Shown: piece after piece, positions 2,960-64,000 of the stretch
How positions within the stretch are numbered: the stretch's first letter is position 1
How the letters are laid out: the number at the start of each line of letters is the position of its first letter
Origin: Paludibacter sp.
GTDB taxonomy: Bacteria; Bacteroidota; Bacteroidia; Bacteroidales; Paludibacteraceae
Reading direction: 5' to 3'
NCBI GenBank assembly: GCA_019163375.1
Contig: JAFLKK010000001.1
Span: 294,638 to 358,637, forward strand
Length of the DNA stretch: 64,000 bases
The notes under the pieces: generated by a model
What the model was told of the DNA's origin: nothing
Database searches by the model: none
The model's input: only the letters and a program-made list of their open reading frames with translations
Position numbers and translations under genes: made by a program

Positions 2960-5716
2960 TTATATAACTATATTTACAATTTTACCGGGAACAACAATTA
3001 TTTTCTTAGGTGCATTACCGTCTAACTGTTTAATTGTTTGTTCGTTCGCCAAAGCAGTTTTTTCAACTTCTTCTTTGCTCATATCCGCAGGAAGTTCCAG
3101 CATGAAACGCACTTTACCATTGAACGAGATAGGGTATTTTACGGATGTTTCTTTCAGATACTCTTCGTTGCAAATAGGGAAAGTGGCATCACAAACACTC
3201 TCATTATTTCCCAATGCCTGATATAATTCTTCAGAGATATGTGGTGCAAATGGAGCAAGTAAAATTACCAGTGGCTCAAGAATAGCTTTCTTATAGCACT
3301 TCAAAGCGAAAAGCTCATTCACACAAATCATAAAGGCCGAAACAGATGTGTTGTATGAGAAATTCTCGATATCGAAGGTGATTTTTTTGATCGTTTTGTG
3401 CAGAATTTTCAATTCTTCGGCTGAAGGAACTTCGTCGGTCACAATAAAGTTTTCCTCTTTGTAGAACAAGGTCCACAAACGTTTCAGAAATCGATGAACA
3501 CCGTCAATTCCGTTGGTATCCCAGGGTTTTGATTGTTCCAATGGTCCGAGAAACATTTCGTACAAACGGAGCGTGTCAGCACCATATCTCACAACGATAT
3601 CATCCGGATTTACAACATTGTACATCGATTTTGACATTTTCTCAACTGCCCAACCGCATACATATTTTCCATCTTCCAAAATAAATTCAGCATTGGCATA
3701 GTCGGGCAGCCAATTTTTGAATTTGTCAATATCAAGCACGTCGTTCGAAACAATATTCACATCCACATGAAGTTGTGTTGTTTCATATTGATCTTTCAAA
3801 TTTAGCGATACAAAAGTATTGCTGTCTTTGATACGATACACAAAATTACTACGTCCCTGAATCATCCCCTGATTAACCAGTTTTTTGAATGGTTCATCTT
3901 CACAAATCAACTCTAAATCAAATAAGAATTTGTTCCAGAAACGACTGTAAACCAAATGTCCTGTAGCATGTTCGGTACCACCGATGTACAAATCCACATT
4001 TCTCCAATATTGGTTTGCTTCTGTACTAACCAATGCTTTATCGTTTTTCGGATCCATGTAGCGCAAATAGTAGGCCGATGAACCTGCAAAACCGGGCATG
4101 GTGCAGAATTCCAACGGAAAACCTTCTTCGTTTGTCCAGTTTTTTGCTCGGCCCAGTGGTGGTTCGCCTTTTTCGGTTGGCAGGAATTTATCTATTTCGG
4201 GCAATTCCAGCGGCAAACGGCTTTCGTCGAGCATATAAGGCATGTCGTCTTTGTAATAAACCGGAAACGGTTCACCCCAGTAACGTTGACGGCTGAAAAT
4301 GGCATCGCGTAAGCGGAAATTTACTTTCACACGTCCGATTCCTTTTTCCGAAATATATTCTTTTGCTTTCGCAATAGCTTCTTTTACAGTAAGTCCGTTC
4401 AAAAATCCGGAATTCATCATGATGCCTTCTTTTGCATCCAAACTTTCTTCGCTGACATCGCAACCTTCAATTAATGGAATAATTGGTAGACTGAAGTGCT
4501 TAGCAAAAGCATAGTCACGGCTATCGTGAGCAGGAACAGCCATGATGGCGCCCGTACCATAACCGGCCAGTACATAGTCGCTGATCCAAATTGGAATTTC
4601 TGTTCCGCTGACAGGATTGATGGCGTACGAACCGGAAAAAACACCCGATACTCTGCGGTCAGCAATACGCTCACGTTCGGTACGTTTTTTTGTAGCTGCA
4701 ACATAATTTTCAACCTCAGTAGCTTGTTCAGCTGTTGTCAGTTGTTTTACCAATTCACTTTCGGGCGCTAAAACCATGAAGGTTACACCATAAATAGTGT
4801 CGGCACGTGTGGTGAAAACCTCAAAATTGAAATCCTGACCTTTAATATTGAACGTCATCTCAGCTCCTTCCGAGCGTCCAATCCAATTCTTTTGTGTTTC
4901 TTTCAATGACTCCGTCCATTCCACAGTTCCCAAACCGTCCAGCAATCGTTGTGCGTAAGCTGAAACGCGCAAACTCCACTGACGCATAACACGTTGTTCT
5001 ACAGTATGTCCTCCTCGAACGGAAACACCTTCGCTCACTTCGTCGTTAGCCAAAACAGTTCCAAGTGCAGGACACCAGTTTACCTTTAAATCGGCCAAAT
5101 AAGCAATGCGATAGTTGAGTAGTACTTCTTGTTGATCTTTCTCAACTTTCGATTTCCATTCTCCGGCAGTGAAAGTCATTTCTTCGGTGCATGAGGCCTC
5201 AATGCCGGCTGTTCCCGATGTTTCGAAAGCTTTTATCAACGAAGCTATTGGTTGTGCTTTTTGTAATTTTGTATCAAAATAATGATTGAACATTTGAATA
5301 AATGCCCATTGAGTCCATTTGTAATAGTCTGGCTCACAGGTTCTTATTTCGCGACTCCAATCGTAGCAAAAACCGATTTTGTCCAATTGCTCACGATAAC
5401 GCGCAATGTTTTTCTTGGTGGTAACTGCCGGGTGTTGACCGGTTTGAATAGCATATTGTTCTGCCGGCAAACCGTAGGCATCATAACCCATTGGATGAAG
5501 TACATTAAATCCTTTTAAGCGTTTGTAGCGGCTGAAAATGTCCGAAGCAATGTATCCCAGCGGATGACCAACATGTAAACCTGCTCCCGAAGGATAGGGA
5601 AACATATCCAAAACGTAAAATTTGGGTTTGTTTTGATCAATTTCTGTTTTATAGGTATTGTTTTTCTTCCAATTAGCCTGCCATTTCTGCTCAATTTCAC
5701 TAAAGTTGTACTCCAT
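2960..5716 (-). CDS. leuS: leucine--tRNA ligase
   Basis: 918 aa with a class I HIGH motif (HVGHPLGY), KMSKS, and a CP1 editing-domain-sized insertion. Confidence 0.97.
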
Positions 5717-5790: not shown

Positions 5791-5923
5791 ATCAATTTAG
5801 CTGAATAATAGATGTCGGATTTGGCTAAAAAAATCATTCGTATTATTTTATATTGCAGTATTGGACAAGCGTTTCGAAAAAATGATTATTTTTGTAAGTT
5901 TTAAAATTAATCACACCTACATA

Positions 5924-6619
5924 ATGTTCAATAATCATATTACGGTTCAATTTAAAGTTCCCGAACCAACATTAAGACGTTTGCCCTGGTACCTGGCTTA
6001 TGCTCAATTGGTTCTTAAAGAGGGTGAACTATATCTTTCTTCCACTCAAATTGCTAAAAATATAGCCGTTGACGCCTCTATGGTTGCAAAAGATTTGTCT
6101 TATGTGAACATAGCGGGTCGAACTCGTGTGGGGTATGATGTGAAGGAACTCGTTGGAATCCTCGAAGAATTTTTGGGCTTTACCAACTCTCATAAGGCTT
6201 TTTTGTTTGGCGTGGGTAGTCTTGGTGGTGCTTTGATGCATGATAATGGATTGGAACAGTTTGGATTAGAAATTGTAGCCGGTTTTGACGTGAAATACGA
6301 ATTGGCCGGTACAAGCATTAACCGCGTACCGATTCATCATCTCGATCGTTTCGTGGAACTTCAACGCCAAACAGGAATTAATATTGGTGTGCTCACTGTT
6401 CCGGTAGATAAAGCCCAAATGGTATCCGAAATAATGATTGCCGGTGGAATTCAGGCTATTTGGAATTTTACTCCTTTTCGTATCCGGGTGCCCGAAAATG
6501 TAATTGTTCAAAATACATCTATTTATGCCCATTTAGCAGTTATGTTTAATAGACTTAATGCGATTAAAGAGGATGAAAAGAAACGAATTTCGAATCTCAA
6601 ACAACAATCATCAAAATGA
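5924..6619 (+). CDS. rex: redox-sensing transcriptional repressor Rex
   Basis: PEPTLRRLPWYL winged-helix N-terminus, Rossmann GVGSLGGAL, and a C-terminal AIWNFTPFRIRVP. The track ORF starts at a TTG at 5861; ATG 5924 (MFNNHITV) gives a typical Rex length. Confidence 0.88.
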   Translation: MFNNHITVQFKVPEPTLRRLPWYLAYAQLVLKEGELYLSSTQIAKNIAVDASMVAKDLSYVNIAGRTRVGYDVKELVGILEEFLGFTNSHKAFLFGVGSLGGALMHDNGLEQFGLEIVAGFDVKYELAGTSINRVPIHHLDRFVELQRQTGINIGVLTVPVDKAQMVSEIMIAGGIQAIWNFTPFRIRVPENVIVQNTSIYAHLAVMFNRLNAIKEDEKKRISNLKQQSSK

Positions 6620-25577: not shown

Positions 25578-26591
25578 TTAAACTGTTGGTATGTAGTTGA
25601 TAATCGGGTCTTCTTTAGCTAAAGTGCCAAAACACTGTTCGGATGCTGCCCGGCAACCGCCTTTGCACACCGACCAGTGGGAGCAGGGTTTGCATAGATC
25701 AGGCACGGAGGTCTCCCATTGGGTGGTATAGTCGGAGTAAAGAATTTCTTCCAACTCCTTTTGGTAGATATTGCCGGCCACTACGGGTGAGTGATTACAC
25801 AAGCGTATATTACCGTTTATATCCAGTGTTATTGGGCGTTTAAGTACGTCGAACGAACAATGTCCGAAACCGATAAGCGGATAGTCGGCCGGATTGAGTA
25901 AACAAATGGGTGAGCAAACGTTGGCGGTAAGGCGGAGGTCCAGCTCCATTGCTTTGTCGTTGGCAACCGCAAAAGCACTGCGCAATTCTGCAGCTGTAGC
26001 CGAAACTTCCATGGGATTGGCACAGCCTTTTCCACCGATATTATAACGGTTGAGCATGATGCGTTTGCAACCCAGCGAGTTTATAAATTCGAGCGTTTCG
26101 CCTAATTGATTTACATTATGCCGGGTAATAACCACTACCGGAACCACGCTTCCGCCAAGTTGCAGCACTTCGCGGGTGGAGGTGACTGACTTTTGCCAAC
26201 TGCCTGGCACTTGCACCATGCGGTCGTGAATATCGGCTTGCGCTGAATGGATAGGAAATTCGAACAATCCCACGCCGAGTTTAATGAGCTGCTTGTAATC
26301 CTTGGCTTTGCCCTGCGTACCGTTGCTGATAAGGGTCACCTGCTTGCCTTCCATGCGACAAAACAGTATCACTTCCGCAAAACGCTCCGACAGAAAGGGC
26401 TCACCACCCGTGAATGCTACGTATTGAATATCAGCAACACTAAAAAGTTTTTTAAGCGTCTCTATCGCTTTGGTGTACGAATTAAACGGAACCCGTTCCA
26501 CGGCATCCGTTTTCCATATATTATAACAATATACACAATCGAGGTTGCAGCGGTCGGTGGTTTCAAAAGCGATATGTTGGAGGTTAAGCAT
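25578..26591 (-). CDS. radical SAM enzyme with C-terminal SPASM domain (peptide/protein-modifying type)
   Basis: 337 aa. CNLDCVYC (CxxxCxxC), GGEPF, and a Cys-rich C-terminus CSPIC...CSFD...CNHSP...CKPCSHWSVCKGGCRA. Confidence 0.9.
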   Translation of the reverse strand: MLNLQHIAFETTDRCNLDCVYCYNIWKTDAVERVPFNSYTKAIETLKKLFSVADIQYVAFTGGEPFLSERFAEVILFCRMEGKQVTLISNGTQGKAKDYKQLIKLGVGLFEFPIHSAQADIHDRMVQVPGSWQKSVTSTREVLQLGGSVVPVVVITRHNVNQLGETLEFINSLGCKRIMLNRYNIGGKGCANPMEVSATAAELRSAFAVANDKAMELDLRLTANVCSPICLLNPADYPLIGFGHCSFDVLKRPITLDINGNIRLCNHSPVVAGNIYQKELEEILYSDYTTQWETSVPDLCKPCSHWSVCKGGCRAASEQCFGTLAKEDPIINYIPTV

Positions 26592-26597
26592 ATGTAT

Positions 26598-27296
26598 TTA
26601 TTCTTGTGTTCTGAAAATTATGGGCAATGTATATCGAACGCGAACTGCCTGCCCATTTTGCTTGCCGGGACTAAATTTAGGCATAGCTTTAATTGCTTTG
26701 ACAGCTATAGAATCTAATATTGGATCCAGACTTCGATATATTGTAATGTCTGAAATAGAACCATCTTTATTGACAATAAACCCACAAATAACTTTGCCAT
26801 TGATGTTTGAAAGACTTTCGTTGCTTGGGTATTTAATGTGTCTTTCGAGAAAATTCATTAATTCAGTTTCGCCTCCAGTAAACTGTGGTATTTGGTCAAC
26901 TGTTTCATAAATAGAATTGTCATCCACTATCTCTACTGAGTCTTGTAGGATAACTTCCGTGTCGTAGCAAGTGACCATAGGTTCTACAAAGTGAATGATG
27001 GAATGGTTACTTTTCGATTGTTTTATAGTATCACTTTTTGCAGAAGCTTTTTCTTTAATACTAACTTTAGAAGACTTCGAAACCAATTCAGTTGAATCAG
27101 TTCTTCTAGTTGCATTTGAACTTGTTTGTTGATTATCCGCTTTTTTATTACAACTCGTTAGCCCCAGCCCTAAAATCAATGACCCCAACAGCAATTTCGG
27201 ACGAACAAATACCCGCCACCCACCGGTTTTGTCGGCCAAATAGGCGAATAGTTGGAACAGCACATTAAATGTGTGGAGTTTTATTTTTCTGGACAT
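26598..27296 (-). CDS. TonB C-terminal-domain protein, paralog 4 of the tandem array
   Basis: 232 aa. Shared N-terminal module MSRKIKLHTFNVLFQLFAYLADKTGGWRVFVRPKLLLGSLI, lipobox-like GLTSC, VTCYD motif, and a TonB_C-like end (GKVICGFIV...RSLDP...PGKQNGQAVRVRYTLPIIF). Confidence 0.85.
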   Translation of the reverse strand: MSRKIKLHTFNVLFQLFAYLADKTGGWRVFVRPKLLLGSLILGLGLTSCNKKADNQQTSSNATRRTDSTELVSKSSKVSIKEKASAKSDTIKQSKSNHSIIHFVEPMVTCYDTEVILQDSVEIVDDNSIYETVDQIPQFTGGETELMNFLERHIKYPSNESLSNINGKVICGFIVNKDGSISDITIYRSLDPILDSIAVKAIKAMPKFSPGKQNGQAVRVRYTLPIIFRTQE

Positions 27297-27298
27297 AA

Positions 27299-27865
27299 TT
27301 ATTTCTTTGGGAGTTTAAAGATAACTGGTAGGGTGTATCTGACATTTACCTTTTTTCCATCCTGTTTGCCGGGAATCCACTTAGGCAAAAGTTTTACAAC
27401 TCGTATTGCTTCTTTATCACAAGCTGGTTCGAGTGAGCGTAACACGCTCACATCCCTAATTACACCTGTGCTATCTATAACTATACTTAAGGAAACTTTT
27501 CCTTCAATTTTTTTTTCTATAGCTTTTTCGGGATATTTAATATTTTTCGATAAAAATGTCATTAATTCTCCATCGCCACCCGGGTAATATGCTATTGGAT
27601 CAATAACATAACACCAGATGTTGTCTTTATCTTCATCTGATTGAATGGAGTCTTTTGTATCTTGAGTTTTGTTGATACTCGTTGATTTTTCAGTTTCTTT
27701 GTTCTCTGTCTTTGTTCCACAACTCGTCAATCCCAATCCTACAATCAACGACCCCAATAGCAATTTCGGACGTACAAACACTCGCCATCCTCCGGTTTTG
27801 TCGGCCAGATAGGCGAATAGTTGGAACAGCACATTAAATGTGTGGAGTTTTATTTTTCTGGACAT
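27299..27865 (-). CDS. TonB C-terminal-domain protein, paralog 3
   Basis: 188 aa. Same N-terminal module, GLTSC, IWCYV, and TonB_C motif (YPGGDGELMTFL...EGKVSLSIVIDSTGV...RSLEPACDKEAIRVVKLLPKWIPG). Confidence 0.85.
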   Translation of the reverse strand: MSRKIKLHTFNVLFQLFAYLADKTGGWRVFVRPKLLLGSLIVGLGLTSCGTKTENKETEKSTSINKTQDTKDSIQSDEDKDNIWCYVIDPIAYYPGGDGELMTFLSKNIKYPEKAIEKKIEGKVSLSIVIDSTGVIRDVSVLRSLEPACDKEAIRVVKLLPKWIPGKQDGKKVNVRYTLPVIFKLPKK

Positions 27866-27867
27866 GA

Positions 27868-28443
27868 TTATTCCTTTGGAAGTTTAAATTTTAAGGGTAG
27901 AGTGTATCTCACATTTGTTTTCTTTTTGTTCAGATAATCATATCCGGGAATCCATCTGGGCAAAAGTTTCACAACTCTTATTGCTTCTTTATCGCAAGCC
28001 GGTCCGAGTGACCGTAATACACTCACATCCCTCACTACACCAGTACTATCTATAACAAAGCCTAAGATTACTTTTCCTTCAATTTTTTTCTTGATAGCTT
28101 CTTTTGGATATTTTAAATTTTTGGATATAAATGCCATTAATGCTGCATCGCCGTCGGGGTAAGTTGGCATTTGCTCGGTAACATAGCACCAAACATTTTC
28201 ATCTGTTTTTTTTGATTGTGTAGTGTCTTTGTTGTTTAGTGTCTTGTCATCGTTGGACGTTTTCTTGTTTGATGGATTTTGTGCCACCGCTTGTTCGGAG
28301 CTCATGAGTCCCCAGCCCATAATGAGTGACCCAAGCAGCAACTTGGGACGTACAAATACACGCCATCCACCGGTTTTGTCGGCCAGATAGGCGAATAGTT
28401 GAAAGAGTACATTGAACGTGTGGAGTTTTATTTTTCTTGACAT
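27868..28443 (-). CDS. TonB C-terminal-domain protein, paralog 2
   Basis: 191 aa. Same N-terminal module, VWCYV, and TonB_C motif; roughly 75 percent identical to paralog 3 by eye over the C-terminal domain. Confidence 0.85.
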   Translation of the reverse strand: MSRKIKLHTFNVLFQLFAYLADKTGGWRVFVRPKLLLGSLIMGWGLMSSEQAVAQNPSNKKTSNDDKTLNNKDTTQSKKTDENVWCYVTEQMPTYPDGDAALMAFISKNLKYPKEAIKKKIEGKVILGFVIDSTGVVRDVSVLRSLGPACDKEAIRVVKLLPRWIPGYDYLNKKKTNVRYTLPLKFKLPKE

Positions 28444-28447
28444 GACA

Positions 28448-29056
28448 TTAAGGTTTAAAGATGACGGGGACAGTGTAATAAACCTTCACAACCCGACCAT
28501 TTAGCTTGCCGGGAATAAATTTTGGTAGTAATTTTAGGACTCTTATTGCTTCTTTGTCGCACGTAGGGTCTAACGATCGGAGAATAGTAAAATTGTTTAA
28601 ACTTCCATCTGTATCAACTATAAACCGGCAAATCACTTTTCCTCCAATACCATTGTAGCATTGAACTATAGGTTGTGGAGTAATGTTTTTATGGATAAAT
28701 GCTATCATAGCACTATCTCCACCAGGATACTGTGGCATTTGTTCAACCACATCAAAAATAATATTGGCAGTATCTATAGGCTCAGTTACTCTTTCATAAC
28801 ATGTAACAATTGGTTCATTGTGTATAACTAATGGTCCGTCAAATTTAAATGAAGTTTTTTTTAAACCACTAGACCCTTTTTTTAATTGAGTTTGAGCATT
28901 TATTGGCATGCTGCTTGCCAATCCTAGCCCAACTATCAATGAACCCAACAGCAATTTTGGACGTACAAACACCCGCCATCCACCGGTTCTGTCGGCCAGA
29001 TATGCGAATAGTCGAAAGAGCGCATTGAATGTGTGGAATTTGATTTTACTTGACAT
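28448..29056 (-). CDS. TonB C-terminal-domain protein, paralog 1 (promoter-proximal)
   Basis: 202 aa. N-terminal module MSSKIKFHTFNALFRLFAYLADRTGGWRVFVRPKLLLGSLI, VTCYE, and TonB_C motif (RSLDPTCDKEAIRVLKLLPKFIPG). Confidence 0.85.
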   Translation of the reverse strand: MSSKIKFHTFNALFRLFAYLADRTGGWRVFVRPKLLLGSLIVGLGLASSMPINAQTQLKKGSSGLKKTSFKFDGPLVIHNEPIVTCYERVTEPIDTANIIFDVVEQMPQYPGGDSAMIAFIHKNITPQPIVQCYNGIGGKVICRFIVDTDGSLNNFTILRSLDPTCDKEAIRVLKLLPKFIPGKLNGRVVKVYYTVPVIFKP

Positions 29057-29079
29057 AGTTCATAGATTTTAAGATTGGA

Positions 29080-29087
29080 CAAATATA
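29080..29087 (-). promoter_or_regulatory. -7 promoter box (CAAATATA = reverse complement of TATATTTG) for the TonB_C/rSAM operon
   Basis: TAnnTTTG match on the - strand, 24 nt upstream of the ATG at 29056. Confidence 0.5.
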
Positions 29088-29348
29088 GTAATTTATTGAT
29101 TATATTAACAACAAATAATATATTTATTTTCATTTTGTTTATACTGTTGATAACTTTTAGTGAGAACTATTGCATATTTAATATTGACTCGATATGTTTC
29201 GTGTGAAAATAGATGAATGGTTGATAATTAAGGCATACGTCTATGAATACCTCGAAGGAATAATGGAAATTAGGAGTTTGTAATGGGTGTGTTTAACGGG
29301 TTTTAAATAAAAAATCAATAAAAATAACAAACATAGATTACTAATTCA

Positions 29349-29621
29349 GTCAGAAACCTTGGTAAAACCGTCAGTCTGCTCGGTAAAACTGTCAGACCGC
29401 TTCGTAAAACTGTCAGACCGCTCGGTAAAACCGTCAGAACTCTCGGTAAAATTGTTTATTTGCTTAGTAAAACTGTCTGAGCGTTCGGTAATTTTGTTAT
29501 ATTCCTTCGTAAAACTGTCAGAAGCCGGGGTAAAACTGTCAGACCGCTCGGTAAAACCGTCAGAAACCTTGGTAAAACTGTCAGAACTCTTCGTAAAATT
29601 GTCTTGTAGCTTCGTAAAGTT
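29349..29621. repeat. 13 tandem copies of a 21-bp unit (consensus GTCAGAnnnnnnnGTAAAACY)
   Basis: Units delimited by hand at 29349, 29370, 29391 and so on to 29601. A conserved ~14-nt core GTAAAAC(T/C)GTCAGA alternates with a ~7-nt variable part. Units 4 and 10 are identical, as are units 1 and 11 apart from the last base. Confidence 0.95.
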
Positions 29622-29709
29622 GGAATGGAGCTGGGTGACTTTTTAATCACAGGGGGTAAGCGCAACTCAAAAGCTCAGCCCCGAAGGGGTTGAATATCTC
29701 GATTAGATA

Positions 29710-30576
29710 CTATTTTCTATTCACCAAATAAATCCCCACCAACACCACTACTGCCCCCGCCATTTCTTGCAGCGTAAGCATTTCGCCAAGAATAGGAACC
29801 GAGAAAATAGCTGTGAAAACGGTTTGGCTCAGCAAACTTACCGACGCCACCGTTGGGCGGATATGTCCCAGTGCCTGATTGATGGCCAGCCAACCAAGTA
29901 GTTGTGGTATGAAACCCAATGTACCCAATGCCAACCATGTTTGGGTGCTAAAACCCCAGAGTGGGGTAGAAGTGAAGAGGCAAATCAGACCCAGTAATAC
30001 CGTGCTCGAAATCATGGATATGGTGGTGAATGAAAAGGTGTCGAGCGAGTTTCGGCCTTTGCGCACGGTGAGCAGGTAGGCGCCGTAGAACATGCTGGCA
30101 AAAATGGCCAGCGCATTGCCAAAGTTCAGATGTGCTTCCAATATCTGATTTACACCAATAATAATGGTTACCCCTAAAATGGAAATAATGGTGCCTATCC
30201 AGAAAATTCTGGTGGGTTTCTCTTTCATAAAAAGGAGCGCACCAATGCCCACCCACACCGGAGCCAGATTGGCCAAAAGGGTAGAGATAGACGCTTTTGA
30301 AAGCATGATGGAGCTGTTCCACAACGCAATGTCGCAGGCAAAAAGCAGTCCGCAGATAATGGCTACTTTTACCCCTTTTATGTCGGTAATGGGCTTTTTG
30401 AAATAGAGCCACACGGGAATGATACCAATGGTCCCGAACAACATGCGATAAAATCCTGACCCAAATCCACTAATCCCGGCCAGTTTTACCAATATTGCCG
30501 ACCACGAGATGCATAGCACACCAAACAGTAATAAAAGGTAATGAATCCAAGGGTGGTTTTTATGCATTTTAATCAT
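29710..30576 (-). CDS. EamA/DMT-family transporter
   Basis: Ten predicted TM segments in two EamA-like halves. The track ORF extends to 30678 only by translating the heptamer repeat (SFVFCLL x3), so ATG 30576 or 30567 is preferred. Confidence 0.85.
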   Translation of the reverse strand: MIKMHKNHPWIHYLLLLFGVLCISWSAILVKLAGISGFGSGFYRMLFGTIGIIPVWLYFKKPITDIKGVKVAIICGLLFACDIALWNSSIMLSKASISTLLANLAPVWVGIGALLFMKEKPTRIFWIGTIISILGVTIIIGVNQILEAHLNFGNALAIFASMFYGAYLLTVRKGRNSLDTFSFTTISMISSTVLLGLICLFTSTPLWGFSTQTWLALGTLGFIPQLLGWLAINQALGHIRPTVASVSLLSQTVFTAIFSVPILGEMLTLQEMAGAVVVLVGIYLVNRK

Positions 30577-30593: not shown

Positions 30594-30770
30594 AAAGACA
30601 AAAGACAAAAGACAAAAGACAAAAGACAAAAGACAAAAGACAAAAGACAAAAGATGAAAGATGAAAGATGAATGACAACGGACAGCAGATAAAAGATAGA
30701 CGAACTGATTACTGATTACTGATTACTGTTCACTGATAACTGAAAAGATTACTGATCACTGAACGAATCA
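30594..30770. repeat. ~25 consecutive heptanucleotide units: (AAAGACA)8 (AAAGATG)3 ... (CTGATTA)3 CTGTTCA CTGATAA CTGAAAA ...
   Basis: Counted by hand: AAAGACA x8 at 30594-30649, AAAGATG x3 at 30650-30670, CTGATTA x3 at 30705-30725. Lies between the EamA start and the prmC stop. Confidence 0.9.
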
Positions 30771-34293: not shown

Positions 34294-34377
34294 GACAAAA
34301 GACGAAAGACAAAAGATAAAAGACGAAAGACAAAGGTCAGCAGACAGCAGAATAAAGACAAAAGAGGAACGATAATT
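34294..34377. repeat. 12 heptanucleotide units (GACAAAA GACGAAA GACAAAA GATAAAA GACGAAA GACAAAG GTCAGCA GACAGCA ...)
   Basis: Begins 7 nt after the cls stop. Same unit family as 30594 and 22186. Confidence 0.85.
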
Positions 34378-46845: not shown

Positions 46846-49500
46846 CTATTTTGTCATTTTCTCGTATAATTTAAACAAACACGCCAAGCGTTCTTCATCA
46901 TTGTTGAATGGAGCGGACTGATAGCAACCATCCACAGCCAAGTCTAAAGCATGGTGTGCTGCCCGTAAATCAGTCGGCATTTTGTTGGGGTCGTACATTT
47001 CGGCCAATGTTTTCTCAGTGTAATTTTCTCGTGTCAGCAGTACTTCTTCGGCTAAGGCTTCTATAATCTTTTTCTTGTTTAAAGAGATTTCGGGGAAGGG
47101 GAAAGAATTATAACATAAGCTTGTATATCGATAATCCATTTTTAGTTTGCCTCCAATTGTTTTAAGCCATACAATATTCATAGCGGAAGTCATTACACCA
47201 AATAACCATAATGGTGCATCAGAGATTGTATAACATGCATTTGTGACTACTGAATTACTATCAGAATAATCCATAGGTATATATATTCTATTTGAAGACG
47301 AAGTTGAAGGAATTATTAATGTTTTAGAATTGCATGCGTTAAATTCCCGAAACTGGTGAGGTCGTTGTGCTAACTTTCTTGCACCCTCGTCAGAACTTTG
47401 AATACGAATTTGAGCAGTTTTTTCGATTCGTTGTTTAATAAATGGAATTTGCTCTGCATTTTCGCGTTCTTCATCGGAAATCCATAAGCAATAACGAACT
47501 AGCCCATTTATAAAATCAGCAGAACTAAACAATTTTTTTATGTATTTTATTGAATCCGGGAATTGAGTTGTCAAATCGACTCTATCTGTTTCTGACAGCA
47601 AAAGATTGCCACCATCATAAGGCATACACCCTCTTATTATTAATGGAAATTTTGATAAACTATTTGTATGCTTTTTTACAATCAAATTATCACCCACGAT
47701 TAAATATGGATTTATATTGCTTACTTCCATTTTTGATACACCTTCGAAAATTGTACTCTTTTTGTGTTTTTCCTTATTTATTAAGCCAATTATAACACAA
47801 AAGACAGCTGCATTCTGCGTAGCATTATTACTCCACTTAAATGATAAATGAGCAAAGTCAATAAGTATATCTGAATTTAAAATAGGTGTCCATAATGGAT
47901 CTACCATTTCGCCTTGACATACTGAATTTGTACTTACAAAAGCACATTTAGCATTCGAGGATTTTAAATACTCAGACCCTTTAATGAACCAAATTCCAAT
48001 GTAATCAATTTTTTTATAGTTTGCATATTTTCCGATTGCAATGGTTCTATCTCTTTGTTGAAATTCATCAAGCTTTGCACTTCCCAAATACGGCGGATTC
48101 CCCATAACAAAAACCTCTTCTTCCGGAGTATGCGGACATACCTCGTTCCAATCTATGCGACAGGCATTGTCTTCACGAATGTTGTCGATATTTTTGAGTG
48201 GAAGCGCTTCAATCTTTACATCAGAAAATGCTTTTGTGAATAGCGCGTTCATTTGGTGTTCGGCAAGCCACAGTGAGAGCATGGCTATTTCGTGGGCAAA
48301 ACTATCTATCTCAACACCATAGAACTGCTTGATACTGATATTAGTAAAAGGAAAAGCGTGTGAACCGGTGAGTTCGGCAATGCGTTTCCATATACGGATT
48401 TCAAGTTCGCGAAGTTTTTTATATGTAATTATAAGGAAGTTACCGCTGCCACAAGCAGGGTCAAAGAATTTCATTTTGGAAATGCGAATCAACAAGGTGT
48501 TGAGTTGCTTTTCGCTGTTTTCAGCTTTTAAGTATGCCTCATTCAATTCGTTCAGAAAAAGTGGTTGTATAAGTTTTAGGATATTAGGCACGCTGGTGTA
48601 GTGCATCCCGAAATTTCCTCGAAGTTCAGGTGTCACTACCCCTTGAAACATTGAGCCAAAAATATCGGGGTTAATTTCGCCCCAATTAAGTGTACCACAC
48701 TCTAAAATGATTTTTCGAGCTTTGTATCCCAATTGTGGAATGGTAATACGTTGGCTAAACAATCCTCCGTTTACATAAGGAAACTGTTTAATCACGTTAG
48801 GCAAGTCGAGGCGAGCATTGTTATCCATCACATTGAAAATGGTATCTAATGCTTCCGCTAAATCACTACCATCGTCTTGCGTACATTGCTTAATGTAGTT
48901 TGAGAAAATGTCTTTTTCGAAAATTTTGGTATCCTCGGCAAAAAAGCAAAAAAGCAGGCGGGTCATAAATATATTCAAATCGTGCACATCCGATTCGGAC
49001 GAAATTTCGTTCTGTCTGCGGATTTCGTTGTGAAGCTTTGCCATTTTTACTGCTGCTTTTACATCTGCATCAGCTTCTTCTGCAATGAAAAAACGATCAT
49101 TAGCTTCGCCTGCCAACGGATAAAAGAATTGAAAATCGAGCCAGATTTTATCTACCTTGTTTTCATACGATTCTCTTTCTTTGGTATCGTAGGCAAGCAG
49201 TGTTTCGCCATCGCTAACAGCTATTATCCGTGGGTTTTGTTTAGCAATTTTATCATCTTTCTTTAATGCTTCTAATTCTTCAGTAAGTTGGATAGTTGTT
49301 ACTGGTTTGTAGGCAAATTGTTTTTTAACAAGTACGCCATCAAAAGTAGCCAAATTACCTTTGCCAGCTTTGTAACGCTTTATATAGGTGTCGCTTGTAC
49401 CAAATGCCTTCAATAGTTTGTAACCAATTTCTAAGGGGAGAGTTTCTGAACTTAACTTTTTGAGTTCTTTTTCAATGTCAGAGTATTTGATAGAAGCCAT
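46846..49500 (-). CDS. MmeI-family (type IIL-like) N6-adenine DNA methyltransferase
   Basis: 884 aa. MHYTSVPNILKLIQPLF, motif I FFDPACGSGNFLI, motif IV GNPPYLG, and an MmeI-type C-terminus MYDPNKMPTDLRAAHHALDLAVD...ERLACLFKLYEKM. Confidence 0.85.
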   Translation of the reverse strand: MASIKYSDIEKELKKLSSETLPLEIGYKLLKAFGTSDTYIKRYKAGKGNLATFDGVLVKKQFAYKPVTTIQLTEELEALKKDDKIAKQNPRIIAVSDGETLLAYDTKERESYENKVDKIWLDFQFFYPLAGEANDRFFIAEEADADVKAAVKMAKLHNEIRRQNEISSESDVHDLNIFMTRLLFCFFAEDTKIFEKDIFSNYIKQCTQDDGSDLAEALDTIFNVMDNNARLDLPNVIKQFPYVNGGLFSQRITIPQLGYKARKIILECGTLNWGEINPDIFGSMFQGVVTPELRGNFGMHYTSVPNILKLIQPLFLNELNEAYLKAENSEKQLNTLLIRISKMKFFDPACGSGNFLIITYKKLRELEIRIWKRIAELTGSHAFPFTNISIKQFYGVEIDSFAHEIAMLSLWLAEHQMNALFTKAFSDVKIEALPLKNIDNIREDNACRIDWNEVCPHTPEEEVFVMGNPPYLGSAKLDEFQQRDRTIAIGKYANYKKIDYIGIWFIKGSEYLKSSNAKCAFVSTNSVCQGEMVDPLWTPILNSDILIDFAHLSFKWSNNATQNAAVFCVIIGLINKEKHKKSTIFEGVSKMEVSNINPYLIVGDNLIVKKHTNSLSKFPLIIRGCMPYDGGNLLLSETDRVDLTTQFPDSIKYIKKLFSSADFINGLVRYCLWISDEERENAEQIPFIKQRIEKTAQIRIQSSDEGARKLAQRPHQFREFNACNSKTLIIPSTSSSNRIYIPMDYSDSNSVVTNACYTISDAPLWLFGVMTSAMNIVWLKTIGGKLKMDYRYTSLCYNSFPFPEISLNKKKIIEALAEEVLLTRENYTEKTLAEMYDPNKMPTDLRAAHHALDLAVDGCYQSAPFNNDEERLACLFKLYEKMTK

Positions 49501-50633: not shown

Positions 50634-50673
50634 AATTTAATCAACAATTAATAATTAGTAATGCATGTGCATA

Positions 50674-50833
50674 GTGAATAATGAATAATGAATAATGGAG
50701 CAAAGTATTGAATAATAATACAATGTGTTGAATTTGATTATTCATAGTACTTTTAGTGATAAAATAGAGTGAATAATGATACGTGTATTAACTGGCTAAA
50801 TTGCAGGTTGATAAGGCAATATTCATTATTCAC
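50674..50833. repeat. iteron cluster (GTGAATAATGA / GAATAAT) between the primase-like and DUF3987 genes
   Basis: GAATAAT x3 in tandem at 50676-50696; single direct copies at 50710 and 50771; inverted copies at 50737-50743 and 50821-50833. Confidence 0.7.
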
Positions 50834-55253: not shown

Positions 55254-56558
55254 CTACAATACCTTCACTGCTTCATCAATTACATTGCTGTTAAAGCTAT
55301 CGAGATAGGTGTTTGTTGTTTTAAGGTCTTTATGACCTAAGATTTGAGAAATGACTTCTCTTGGCACTTCATTGTTCTGTAAACTCATAGCCATAGTATG
55401 ACGACTAACATAAGAGGTCAGATTTATGTCACTGATTTCAAATTCATCTGCCAAGCCATCAAGATATGAATTTAGTTTTTTCAATCTTGTTTTAAGGTGA
55501 TTGTAAAGTTTTTCGCCAGTGAGATTTTCAATAGTTACAATTGGCAATAAGTAAGTATCAACAGGCTTCTTCATCTCGGAAAGTTCATTGATAAGCGTTT
55601 GAAGCTCTTCTGATAGCTTGATATTTATTGCCTTAGAACCTTGGCTGTTTTTTGTTTTGTGGCGTTTATATACAATATAAAGCCCATTCTCATACCTCTT
55701 AATATTGTCAGGTGTTAAGCGTGCCATATCCACGAAACTCATTCCATAGCAAAAGTATGAAAAAAGAAATAACTTTCGAGCATATTCATTAACTTTTTTA
55801 TCTGAACTTGTGGTTTTGATCTTAATGAGGTATTCAGAAGGTAAATATCGTTTCTCGGTCTCTTCTCCTAATTTGGCAACTTCAAAACCTCCTTTTCCAA
55901 ATGGATATGTCGTTGGACTTGCTTCTTTTGCCTCAATGGCCATATTTAATGCTGCACGCAATGATTTGAAATAAATTCTTCGTGTATTGCCGGAACAACC
56001 TTTCCGTTGAACTGTTCTTTTGTTGCCTTTAGTGCTTGTGTAGATAGTTTCTCGTGGCATCTGCATGAAAGTGTCTAATGCCCGGATATATTTAATGTCT
56101 ATTTCCGAAAATAGTTTCTTATCGAAATTTTTATCGAAAAGTTCGAGCATATCCAAAGTGCGTTGATAGCAAATTGCATTTCCTGTGTGATCTGTTTCTT
56201 TCAACGTTTTTATGAGATTCTCAAAAAAAGGTTTAACTTTGCCTTTCTTTGAGCGATTAAGGAATGCTTCTTCAAATTGGTTGAGTGTCCAGTCGATTTT
56301 GTTTTCGTCAAAATCTTTTATGGTCTTTTCCGCTTTCGTTTCCTGTTCGTTCAGATAAGCATTGTTTTTTTCGTGGAGTGGATTAATACGTTTATCTTTT
56401 TTGAAACGACCGAAGACTTCATCCCATTGGCTTGGTGTTGCAGTCATATTTAAGCCAATGAATTTCTTTTGACCGCTTTTAGAAATGCGTAAACAGATTG
56501 GATTTGTACCGTCTTTATTGGTATCAAAAGTGCGAAGGAAAATTTTAAACTTTGCCAT
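55254..56558 (-). CDS. tyrosine-type site-specific integrase (Bacteroidota arm-binding N-terminus)
   Basis: 434 aa. Catalytic-region motifs MSFVDMARL, SYVSRHTMAMS, ILGHKDLKTTNTYL. Sits 171 bp from attR. Confidence 0.9.
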   Translation of the reverse strand: MAKFKIFLRTFDTNKDGTNPICLRISKSGQKKFIGLNMTATPSQWDEVFGRFKKDKRINPLHEKNNAYLNEQETKAEKTIKDFDENKIDWTLNQFEEAFLNRSKKGKVKPFFENLIKTLKETDHTGNAICYQRTLDMLELFDKNFDKKLFSEIDIKYIRALDTFMQMPRETIYTSTKGNKRTVQRKGCSGNTRRIYFKSLRAALNMAIEAKEASPTTYPFGKGGFEVAKLGEETEKRYLPSEYLIKIKTTSSDKKVNEYARKLFLFSYFCYGMSFVDMARLTPDNIKRYENGLYIVYKRHKTKNSQGSKAINIKLSEELQTLINELSEMKKPVDTYLLPIVTIENLTGEKLYNHLKTRLKKLNSYLDGLADEFEISDINLTSYVSRHTMAMSLQNNEVPREVISQILGHKDLKTTNTYLDSFNSNVIDEAVKVL

Positions 56559-61881: not shown

Positions 61882-64000
61882 ATGAGAAAATTAGTGGGTT
61901 TGTTTGTGTTGATGTGTCTGAGTATTCACCTGTTTGCAAGTGCCGATAAAGTTATCAATTTGAAAGGCAAGTGGAGTTTTGCAATTGATGAGCATGATCA
62001 GGGAATTTCTGCGAAATGGTTTTCTAAAAAACTGAGCGATTCTATAAACCTTCCGGGTTCGATGGTAGAAAATATGAAAGGCTATAAAATAACTTTAAAT
62101 ACAAAGTTTACCGGCAGTATTTACGACAGCTCGTGGTTTTTTAATCCTCGTATGGCAAAATACCGTCAACCAGAAAATTTGAAAATGCCATTCTGGCTAA
62201 CGCAACTTAACCGTTATGATGGTTTGGCATGGTATCAGAAAGAAGTATCTATTCCGGCATCGTGGAAGGGTCGTTTTATTTCGTTGAAATTGGAACATCC
62301 GCATTTTATTACTCAAGTGTGGATAGATAATACAGAGATTGGTACTCAAAATTCAATGACTGTTCCACATGTTTATGGTTTGCCGGCAACTATTAAGTCG
62401 GGGAAACACCGCATTACGGTGCGCATCGACAATCGCCTGAAGAGTATGGATGTGGGGACTAACTCTCACAGTGTTACCGACCACACTCAGGGGAACTGGA
62501 ACGGTATGGTGGGCGATTTGCAACTAGAAGCGCGACCAACTATCTATTTTGAAGATATTCAGGTGTATCCAAACCTGAAAACGAAAACAGCATTGGTGAA
62601 AATTCATGTACTGAATGTAAATGGTAAACCTGTAAGTGGAAAAATAAATATATCAGCTAAAAGTTTCAATAGCGGTATTTCTCAAACAGTTGCTCCTATA
62701 GAACTTCCGATAAAGCTGACAGGAAAAGAAGCGTCATACGAAATATCACTTCCAATGGGTGATAATATGCAAACATGGGATGAATTTAATCCGGCACTTT
62801 ATAACCTGAATGCCACGCTTACCGTAGGAAAACAAACTGATACCAAAGAAGTGGAGTTTGGTATGCGTGAAATAACTATTCAGGGAAAATATTTTTACGT
62901 AAATGGTAATAAAACGATGCTTCGCGGAACGGTTGAAAATGCATTATTCCCGCTAACCGGTTATCCACCAATGGATGTTGCCTCGTGGGAACGTGTATTC
63001 CGTATCTGTAAATCTTATGGTTTGAACCATATGCGTTTCCATTCATATTGTCCGCCGGAAGCTGCATTTAAAGCCGCAGATAAATTGGGCTTTTACCTTC
63101 AGCCCGAAGGTCCAAGCTGGCCAAATCACAGTACTCAGTTGGGTAGAGGGTTGCCAATTGATACGTACCTGATGGATGAGACTAAACGAATGACCAAAGA
63201 ATATGGTAACTATGCTTCTTTTGTATTTTTAGCTTCGGGTAATGAGCCTCGTGGTGCATGGGTTCCATGGGTAGGTAAATTTGTAGATTACTGGAAAGCT
63301 ACCGATGCACGTCGGTTGTATACAGGTGCATCAGTAGGACAAGGTTGGGCATGGCAACCTAAAAGTCAGTATCATGTAAAAGCAGGTGCGCGGGGTTTGA
63401 CCTGGAGTACGGCTCGTCCTGAGACAATGGGCGATTATGCTTCACGTATAGACACGATAAAAGAACCTTACGTATCGCACGAAACTGGTCAATGGTGTGT
63501 TTTCCCTAATTTTGATGAGATAAAAAAATACACGGGAGTAACCCGTGCTAAGAATTTCGAACTTTTTAAAGAAGATTTGTACGATAGTGATATGTCTGAT
63601 TTGAGTCATGAATTTTTGATGGCGTCGGGTAAATTACAATCATTGTGTTACAAGCATGAAATTGAAAAGACACTTCGTACTCCTAATTATGCCGGGTTTC
63701 AGTTGCTTTGTTTGAATGATTATTCGGGTCAGGGAACTGCTTTGGTGGGTGTGCTGGATGCATTCTGGGATGAAAAGGGCTACATGAATGCTCCAACTTT
63801 CCGTCGCTTTTGTAACTCCACTGTTCCGTTGGCAAGGATAGAGAAGTTTGTTTTCAGAAACAACGAAACGCTTGAAGCCAAAATACAGATAGCACATTTT
63901 GGAAAAGAAGCTTTGAAAAATGTACGGACACTTTGGCGTATACGCGATACTGATGGGTTGACATTGAAAGAAGGTGTGTTGACCGAAGACGAGATACCTG
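61882..64000 (+). CDS. glycoside hydrolase family 2 protein (5' part; continues beyond the window)
   Basis: Open frame from ATG 61882 to the window edge (not in the track because there is no stop). Own translation shows signal peptide MRKLVGLFVLMCLSIHLFASA, a GH2 sugar-binding pattern GLAWYQKEVSIP...VWIDNTEIG, and a TIM-barrel SGNEP. Confidence 0.8.
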   Translation, partial: MRKLVGLFVLMCLSIHLFASADKVINLKGKWSFAIDEHDQGISAKWFSKKLSDSINLPGSMVENMKGYKITLNTKFTGSIYDSSWFFNPRMAKYRQPENLKMPFWLTQLNRYDGLAWYQKEVSIPASWKGRFISLKLEHPHFITQVWIDNTEIGTQNSMTVPHVYGLPATIKSGKHRITVRIDNRLKSMDVGTNSHSVTDHTQGNWNGMVGDLQLEARPTIYFEDIQVYPNLKTKTALVKIHVLNVNGKPVSGKINISAKSFNSGISQTVAPIELPIKLTGKEASYEISLPMGDNMQTWDEFNPALYNLNATLTVGKQTDTKEVEFGMREITIQGKYFYVNGNKTMLRGTVENALFPLTGYPPMDVASWERVFRICKSYGLNHMRFHSYCPPEAAFKAADKLGFYLQPEGPSWPNHSTQLGRGLPIDTYLMDETKRMTKEYGNYASFVFLASGNEPRGAWVPWVGKFVDYWKATDARRLYTGASVGQGWAWQPKSQYHVKAGARGLTWSTARPETMGDYASRIDTIKEPYVSHETGQWCVFPNFDEIKKYTGVTRAKNFELFKEDLYDSDMSDLSHEFLMASGKLQSLCYKHEIEKTLRTPNYAGFQLLCLNDYSGQGTALVGVLDAFWDEKGYMNAPTFRRFCNSTVPLARIEKFVFRNNETLEAKIQIAHFGKEALKNVRTLWRIRDTDGLTLKEGVLTEDEIP

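Follow-up and report, generated by a model that had tools for sequence, protein, structure and literature searches.

The DNA analysed here is a 64-kb window (64,000 nucleotides of contig JAFLKK010000001.1) from a Paludibacter-like, uncultivated Bacteroidales bacterium of peat, and our subject is a tandem array of 21-bp units that lies in one of its intergenic regions. Read along the minus strand, the genes and features at the locus are PrmC, an EamA-family transporter gene, a stem-loop, the array, AT-rich DNA, four paralogous genes with a TonB_C domain, a radical SAM/SPASM (rSAM) gene, a DUF4349 gene, RecX and HlyIII. The EamA stop codon (29710-29712) is 88 bp from the array, and about 292-293 bp of AT-rich DNA separate the array from the first TonB_C start codon at 29056. 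This places the array about 260-540 bp upstream of the conserved promoter of the TonB_C/rSAM operon, in agreement with the distances in an initial annotation made from the letters of the window. Coordinates are collected in Table 1.

Anatomy of the 21-bp array

All 13 units stand head to tail in exact 21-bp register, with no insertions or deletions. Tandem Repeats Finder placed the array at 29349-29603 (period 21, 12.1 copies, 69% matches, 0% indels, score 167), detected longer periods as well, at 42 (score 206) and at 63 (score 239), and traced a degenerate continuation at 29589-29632. The unit reads GTCAGAnnnCTysGTAAAACy on the plus strand and rGTTTTACsrAGnnnTCTGAC on the minus strand, the strand on which every flanking gene is read. 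Nine units (1-5 and 9-12) follow the consensus well, and the other four (6-8 and 13) are degenerate; unit 4 is identical to unit 10 (21/21), unit 1 matches unit 11 at 20/21 positions and unit 5 matches unit 12 at 19/21. The array has an abrupt boundary on its operon-proximal side and fades on the EamA-proximal side, where we recognised a degenerate 14th unit. The 13 exactly phased units and the first two of these pairs had been described in the initial annotation, as had the degeneracy of units 6-8, and the description holds. That annotation also gave each unit a 7-nt variable segment; the variation is real, but it falls at positions 7-9 and 12-13, and C10 and T11 are almost invariant (12/13 units). 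Positions 1-2 and 14-17 are invariant.

Each unit contains one A4 tract (GTAAAAC) and one dyad, CTGTCAG, both of which recur every 21 bp exactly, or every two helical turns. The core GTAAAACYGTCAGA is found in nine in-phase copies in the array at no more than one mismatch. A search of the whole window, of the kind that the initial annotation had suggested, showed the core to be confined to the array apart from a single match at 62464 with two mismatches (0.76 +/- 0.85 matches expected by chance; 10 matches reached by none of 100 shuffles), and no further copy was found in the promoters of the window. A description of the 21-mer as three heptamers was rejected because the consensus heptamers are unrelated to one another. 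We refer to the array type of this repeat family as GTAAAAYYGTCAGA-type.

The array is real and not an assembly artefact. It is identical in a peat contig of the Joint Genome Institute (JGI; L001), and a second JGI contig from another sample (L003) carries it with three substitutions and one extra unit. Logan contigs from four public runs tile the array, and a 36-mer that is duplicated within it appears at doubled depth. Exact-protein look-ups with EamA and the first TonB_C paralog turned up the same JGI contig and a Logan contig of 1 kb, and nothing more. A pattern of two adjacent perfect cores found one match among the JGI metagenome contigs, L003, in a collection that is incomplete, as L001 carries the two-core pattern and yet was not returned; a looser core pattern found no match in IMG/VR.

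Table 1. Features of the array locus (window coordinates)
Feature	Position	Strand	Remarks
21-bp tandem array, 13 units	29349..29621	none	Direct reading and Tandem Repeats Finder
Degenerate 14th unit, EamA-proximal end	29622..29642	none	CTCCATTCCAACTTTACGAAG on the minus strand; Tandem Repeats Finder row 29589-29632 and L003 alignment
Segment with no counterpart in L004/L005, ~490 bp	29175..29662 (approximate)	none	Alignment
EamA-family transporter gene, upstream of array	29710..30576	-	ATG start, JGI gene call
Stem-loop, putative EamA terminator	29675..29693	-	UCAACCCCUUCGGGGCUGA, then CUUUUG (T-run to 29668)
Candidate -7-like box, Bacteroidetes-type	29328..29335	-	TATGTTTG; 13 nt past last unit
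Proximal -7 box of operon promoter, Bacteroidetes-type	29080..29087	-	TATATTTG; 24 nt before first TonB_C start
TonB_C/rSAM operon, downstream of array	25578..29056	-
Four TonB_C-domain paralogs	29056-28448, 28443-27868, 27865-27299, 27296-26598	-
Radical SAM/SPASM gene	26591-25578	-	Last of operon set

Occurrence of the array among strains and relatives

A scan with the rSAM protein yielded 19 related loci from Paludibacter, Microbacter and other Bacteroidales genomes. In two of these, L004 (the 4.4-Mb chromosome OW818663.1) and L005 (a metagenome-assembled genome of an uncultured Paludibacter), the rSAM protein is respectively 98% and 97% identical to that of the window, EamA lies directly upstream of the TonB_C paralogs and the rSAM gene, and the promoter-proximal sequence with its -7 box is kept; their EamA-TonB_C intergenic regions, of 292 and 160 bp, contain no array. 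The segment of the window that has no counterpart in these two genomes consists of the array with flanks of ~40 bp towards EamA and ~175 bp of AT-rich DNA towards the operon, and neither terminal inverted repeats nor a target-site duplication were found at its edges. The core motif is absent from all 19 related loci, and a nhmmer profile of three-unit blocks, run against these loci and the masked window, gave only matches with E above 3. A strict pattern of two adjacent cores found no match among 185,579 GTDB species genomes (one per species, including OW818663.1). One contig of the peat run X3, with a depth of 67x, runs straight from 29087 to 29717 and skips the array, a joint that fits an array-less allele.

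The array is therefore strain-specific and accessory. It occupies a slot of hypervariable intergenic DNA between the EamA terminator and the TonB_C/rSAM promoter, whose proximal -7 box is conserved in L003, L004, L005 and L006. The putative terminator has the same stem in the array-less L004, and its folding energy is unexceptional (z -0.69). The initial annotation had named absence of the array from close relatives with an unchanged operon as a finding that would refute its regulatory reading, and this is the situation in L004 and L005.

Comparison of copy number between strains had been suggested in the initial annotation, and L003 shows a difference. The intergenic region of L003 is longer by exactly 21 bp (one extra unit, CTCTATAACAAAATTACCAAG, beside the degenerate 14th unit) and differs by three substitutions, all of them inside the array; the 292 bp beside the array show no substitution at all. 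With head-to-tail intergenic units and a whole-unit difference between strains, the array has the properties of a generic bacterial intergenic minisatellite or variable-number tandem repeat (VNTR). The two sequences are 97.1% identical in EamA, ~99.4% identical in the intergenic region and first paralog and 92% identical in the rSAM gene, and the TonB_C paralogs number four in the window and two in L003. This mosaic divergence suggests that the array-bearing tract was recently exchanged by recombination. Within the array, the unit pairs 4 and 10, 1 and 11, and 5 and 12, together with the 63-bp super-period, point to block duplication. Whole-unit change and internal block duplications are what slipped-strand mispairing or unequal recombination would be expected to give.

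The array shown here is not the only locus of its kind. An 8,320-bp contig from the same sample, at a depth of 11.8x (10.4-12.1x for the array locus), has at its end 59 bp with 88% identity to units 9-12, beyond which it reads ...GGTAAAATCGTCAGAGCC (CGAAGGTAAAATCGTCAGAGCC) and then unrelated DNA. Short related pieces with other flanks were found at 110-190x in other peat runs, and also in wastewater runs. This second array and the short pieces indicate that the repeat belongs to a small dispersed family, and we regard the array as a non-coding member of a small family of 21-bp repeats of the Paludibacter-like lineage.

Possible roles of the array

Two open reading frames (ORFs) cross the array, of 95 aa on the plus strand and 69 aa on the minus strand, and both start at TTG, as the initial annotation had remarked of the long ORF. 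It had also suggested, as its less likely reading, that the array encodes a heptad-repeat peptide, and a translated peptide in the VKLSDRS, VLPSGLT or VRxLGKT frame, possibly a substrate of the rSAM enzyme, would agree with the fact that four of the six frames are open across the core. However, the VRxLGKT frame has two stop codons, three frames of the array have no homologue among 5.8 billion proteins (a collection that does not contain the window's own ORFs), the array ORFs have no Pfam match, and the JGI gene call has no gene there. The numbers of synonymous and non-synonymous differences between units are alike in all four open frames (9-11 versus 28-32), and the rSAM enzyme already has adjacent precursor-like partners. 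We consider a translated peptide very improbable, and a repeat-protein gene was rejected on the basis of the TTG starts, the lack of homologues for three frames and the lack of a frame-specific synonymous excess.

A role at the level of RNA is somewhat easier to entertain, though still hardly likely. Transcribed as part of the EamA 3' untranslated region, by read-through or from a promoter of its own, the array could yield an unstructured RNA with many sites, for example a sponge for a single-strand RNA-binding protein. Minus-strand RNA is indeed predicted to be less structured than 99 of 100 shuffles (z +2.04; plus strand z +0.14), contigs of 44 bp that match units 4-6 occur in two runs labelled RNA-Seq, and intergenic heptamer repeats of Bacteroidetes have been proposed to be RNA-level sites (PMC4679880). 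Against this, the stem-loop with its T-run separates EamA from the array, the libraries that gave the 44-bp contigs are labelled METAGENOMIC and may contain DNA, and the true metatranscriptomes, X31 and X33, derive from array-less relatives (~94% identity). An Rfam scan of the array matched no family, and this result, together with folding no better than that of shuffles, led us to reject a structured RNA.

The initial annotation had also raised the possibility of an iteron or centromere-like array. In favour of a replication origin or partition site, the array shares with plasmid iterons and parC/parS sites direct repeats of ~20 bp, helical phasing at two turns per unit and a location beside AT-rich DNA. 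However, Pfam scans of the window's ORFs of at least 90 aa found no Rep initiator, DnaA, ParA, ParB, ParR or parM; no GC-skew switch was found; the array showed no similarity by BLAST to any of 72,556 plasmids or 50,697 phages; the genes around it have housekeeping functions (GAPDH, MnmA, RecX, RibD, PrmC, cardiolipin synthase); and the array is absent from sister chromosomes. An iteron origin was rejected for its missing Rep gene, its chromosomal housekeeping context, the lack of a skew switch and this absence from sister chromosomes, and a centromere-like parC/parS site for want of parA/parB or parM/parR genes in the window; we regard either as extremely improbable. CRISPR arrays have repeats of 23-50 bp, unique spacers of similar length, and cas genes or a leader. 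The array, with a period of 21 bp, at most five variable positions per unit and no Cas domain in the Pfam scans of the window, is not one of them; the initial annotation had already noted the lack of spacers and cas genes.

Differences between units are far from evenly spread. Among the eight distinct well-kept units, 18 of the 24 differences from consensus fall at 5 of the 21 positions (p ~0.001 against uniform scatter), and at 12 of the 21 positions all nine good units agree, whereas some positions show three or four letters. As ~16 of the 21 positions are fixed despite an overall unit divergence of ~30%, the core appears to be under constraint. Given that the sisters of the lineage have no array, this divergence also seems too high for a recent expansion in place, and we infer that the array probably arrived as a block and that its core was kept.

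These observations bear on another alternative, a neutral VNTR, in which the array is a functionless product of slippage and the core is conserved through common descent and homogenisation only. The strain-specific, whole-unit change in copy number would fit, as would the abundance of intergenic tandem repeats in the lineage and the confinement of all three intergenic strain substitutions to the array. However, homogenisation works on whole units and not on selected positions, and both the uneven distribution of unit differences and the divergence of units in an array that sisters lack are hard to square with it. We consider a neutral array rather unlikely.

Where A-tracts are repeated every two helical turns, their bends add up. 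In two dinucleotide wedge models, whose figures are approximate, the ratio of end-to-end distance to contour length is 0.29 and 0.21 for the array, compared with a median of 0.90 for the window and 0.91 for shuffled arrays, and nowhere else in the window is a 273-bp stretch so strongly bent. The array is thus predicted to be the most curved DNA of the window. In the same models the heptamer arrays come out as not curved, and so do the arrays of L006 and L021; an unrelated 21/42-bp array in L009 is as curved as that of the window. With one A4 tract per 21 bp, in phase through 273 bp, the array resembles phased A-tract curved DNA; it differs in position, as bends of the classical activating kind are found no farther than ~150 bp from the start site and the array is 260-540 bp from the conserved promoter.

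A conserved core with two-turn phasing is the anatomy that would be expected of a phased binding or bending array, and the initial annotation had proposed cooperative binding of a regulator. In its dedicated form, this proposal would have a response regulator bind the 13 phased cores cooperatively and activate or silence the TonB_C/rSAM genes, with spacing of the LytTR type (9-bp box and 12-bp spacer) or of the OmpR/PhoB type; the regulated promoter could then be that of the -7-like box. Operators of LytTR regulators consist of 9-bp direct repeats spaced by 12 bp, ~10 bp upstream of the -35 element (PMC6193735). The array shares their exact 21-bp period, and a conserved ~9-10-bp box, ACAGTTTTA (minus strand, with ACAGTT), alternates with less conserved spacer positions. 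In addition, AAAA-CTGTCAG (AAAACTGTCAG) resembles half a pho box, whose best-conserved motif in E. coli is CTGTCAT (PMC4415409). Between the end of the last complete core and the -7-like box downstream of it lie ~26 nt, and the same slot in L006 holds a different array with a perfect 16-bp palindrome.

Much of this weakens on inspection, and although this is the most credible of the alternatives that we weighed, we find it doubtful. The phasing and the conserved core stand, but the closest relatives have the same operon and proximal promoter with no array. No gene for a LytTR, OmpR-type or other regulator adjoins the array, and no LytTR domain was found in the scanned ORFs of the window. Known operators of the LytTR and OmpR families have 2-6 repeats, in the LytTR case 2, and not 13 or 14, and the conserved promoter is 260 bp away, where LytTR boxes would be expected some 4-11 bp before the -35 element. 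The motif resemblances are partial and were found after the fact. The -7-like box has TTTC, not TTTG, at its would-be -33 element, and TAnnTTTG occurs three times in the 851 bp scanned (28950-29800), with ~1.1 expected by our own estimate, which is within chance expectation; a promoter adjacent to the array at this box is speculative. Other promoters of the window carry no copy of the core. The observation that underlies the initial annotation is confirmed, and its interpretation was largely not borne out.

With about even confidence, we favour an accessory minisatellite in which a constrained core is displayed along a single face of a curved duplex and acts as a protein platform, as a static bend or as both; its influence on the promoter would be dispensable. 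Cores that recur every two helical turns would all face one side of a strongly curved duplex, and such a platform could support cooperative binding of some DNA-binding protein, intrinsic bending or both. Because the relatives use the same promoter for this operon with no array, any downstream effect on it would be modulatory and dispensable.

The closest analogue of such an element, in architecture only, is BrickBuilt of Porphyromonas gingivalis, an intergenic, spacer-less minisatellite of 23-nt units (AGAYCATARTATCCTCTCRTRTG) in which some positions are conserved and others vary, and whose copy number is not constant (Klein et al. 2015, PMC4596501). BrickBuilt has 19 mapped copies and promoter activity and is embedded in a transposable element of the miniature inverted-repeat type (MITE), its leader and tail bearing IS5-like terminal inverted repeats (GAGACCTTTGCA) at their ends, in some cases together with target-site duplications (PMC4596501). 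The two belong to the same order and share an intergenic location tens to hundreds of bp from coding sequences, imperfect units of about two helical turns (23 and 21 nt) with no spacers, variable copy number, a tendency to break short-read assemblies, and evidence for more than one locus. They differ in sequence, as the BrickBuilt consensus has no match here at up to three mismatches and the 21-nt unit is unrelated to it. The IS5-type inverted repeats match the window at chance level only, and nowhere near the array; no leader, tail or inverted repeats were recognised at the array; and the 19 mapped copies compare with two or three loci glimpsed here from a contig end and short pieces. A MITE was accordingly rejected, as the edges show no inverted repeats or duplications and neither the inverted repeats nor the units of BrickBuilt are present. 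The array is a new family of an already known kind of element.

The favoured reading needs to be interpreted cautiously, as several points weigh against it. The array has no named binding protein and no adjoining regulator gene, and its distance of 260-540 bp from the conserved promoter is long for action by a bend or an activator. Its curvature is a model prediction with approximate figures. The positional test takes no account of the relatedness of units through duplication, and the absence of substitutions beside the array may reflect recent recombination and not constraint. The second array is known from the end of a contig whose membership of the same genome is unproven. Mobility of the element is likewise unproven, as there are no terminal inverted repeats, target-site duplication or common leader and tail.

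A bolder extension, which we think improbable, is that portable, curved platforms of binding sites move or recombine between intergenic slots of Paludibacter-like genomes and rewire the promoters nearby. Here, such a platform would consist of 13 sites with LytTR-type spacing and its own -7-like box, placed before a precursor/rSAM cassette, and one strain would have gained a signal-dependent control that its sisters lack.

Since sisters run the same genes from the same promoter with no array, the array is of little importance for the biology of the operon. It offers a ready VNTR marker for strains of a Paludibacter-like population, one met with repeatedly in peat metagenomes; it explains the breaks of short-read assemblies at the locus, and it extends minisatellites with a constrained core and two-turn units from P. 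gingivalis to an environmental Bacteroidales lineage. If the core is a protein site or the bend is real, the array would also show a promoter rewired naturally, and in a strain-specific way, by a repeat array.

Neighbouring genes and other tandem repeats

The TonB_C paralogs have in common a 45-aa N-terminal region, MSRKIKLHTFNVLFQLFAYLADKTGGWRVFVRPKLLLGSL, vary in number from one to four between strains, and always precede an rSAM/SPASM gene that reaches no NCBIfam cut-off (window and L004-L022). In Rikenellaceae and other relatives, the partner of the rSAM protein is just 81-133 aa long and lacks TonB_C. The set looks like an uncharacterised precursor/maturase cassette. A 29-aa ORF (29194-29283, plus strand), called by JGI in the AT-rich segment specific to array-bearing strains, has no family match and is probably spurious. 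The longest ORF of EamA, from a TTG at 30678, reads through a run of AAAGACA heptamers, which would add a repetitive SFVFCLL N-terminus.

Among the window's housekeeping genes are those for LeuRS, a Rex-like regulator, PorV, IspF, glycogen enzymes, GAPDH, MnmA, RibD and cardiolipin synthase. At 34526-56600 lie a tRNA-Pro (GGG) and, past it, an integrated element that includes defence genes; its content comprises a tyrosine integrase (55254-56558), DUF3987, two HTH_17 genes, a DUF6371/zinc-ribbon gene, an MmeI-type restriction-modification enzyme (46846-49500), a helicase, a Schlafen/AlbA_2 gene, a WYL regulator, a SocA/Panacea gene and T5orf172.

The EamA-to-TonB_C slot is variable in every genome examined. 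In L004 it holds an inverted repeat with a 15-bp stem (5920-5964; GGCTTTAGCCAAATA...TATTTGGCTAAAGCC). In L006, whose rSAM protein is 89% identical to that of the window, it holds a DUF6261 gene on the opposite strand and an unrelated 42-bp tandem array of ~4.5 copies (6212-6398) around a perfect 16-bp palindrome, TTCTCAGTACTGAGAA, overlapped by a 111-aa ORF with a 14-aa repeat. L021 has an AT-rich intergenic array with a 21/63-bp period (1122-1281). L009 has a tandem array of 21/42/126 bp (TGTTTTAGAG...; 4275-4501) preceded by a terminator-like hairpin, with a GAF/PAS histidine kinase gene ~310 bp downstream; the array has a GTTTTA tract in common with that of the window, and the profile search detected no homology between the two.

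Intergenic heptamer repeats (TAACTGA) have been described in Bacteroidetes, Cyanobacteria and Beggiatoaceae, with Paludibacter named among them (PMC4679880). The window and its relatives are likewise rich in intergenic tandem repeats with periods that are multiples of 7; the 21-mer of the array differs in having a composite core and units far more diverged than the near-perfect heptamer runs. Heptamer arrays of the window lie at 30594-30654, 30704-30762, 34294-34365 and 50638-50697; AAAGACA x8.7 is perfect, and other intergenic heptamers are ACTGATT x8.7 (one letter off the published TAACTGA), GACAAAA x10 and TAATGAA x8.7. Relatives have heptamers in these slots too, at other copy numbers (L004 927-1084 and 4860-4938; L005 2125-2199), and L004 contains TCTTTTG x22. 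Over the 19 related loci, tandem-repeat periods are mostly multiples of 7 (7, 14, 21, 42, 63 and 126).

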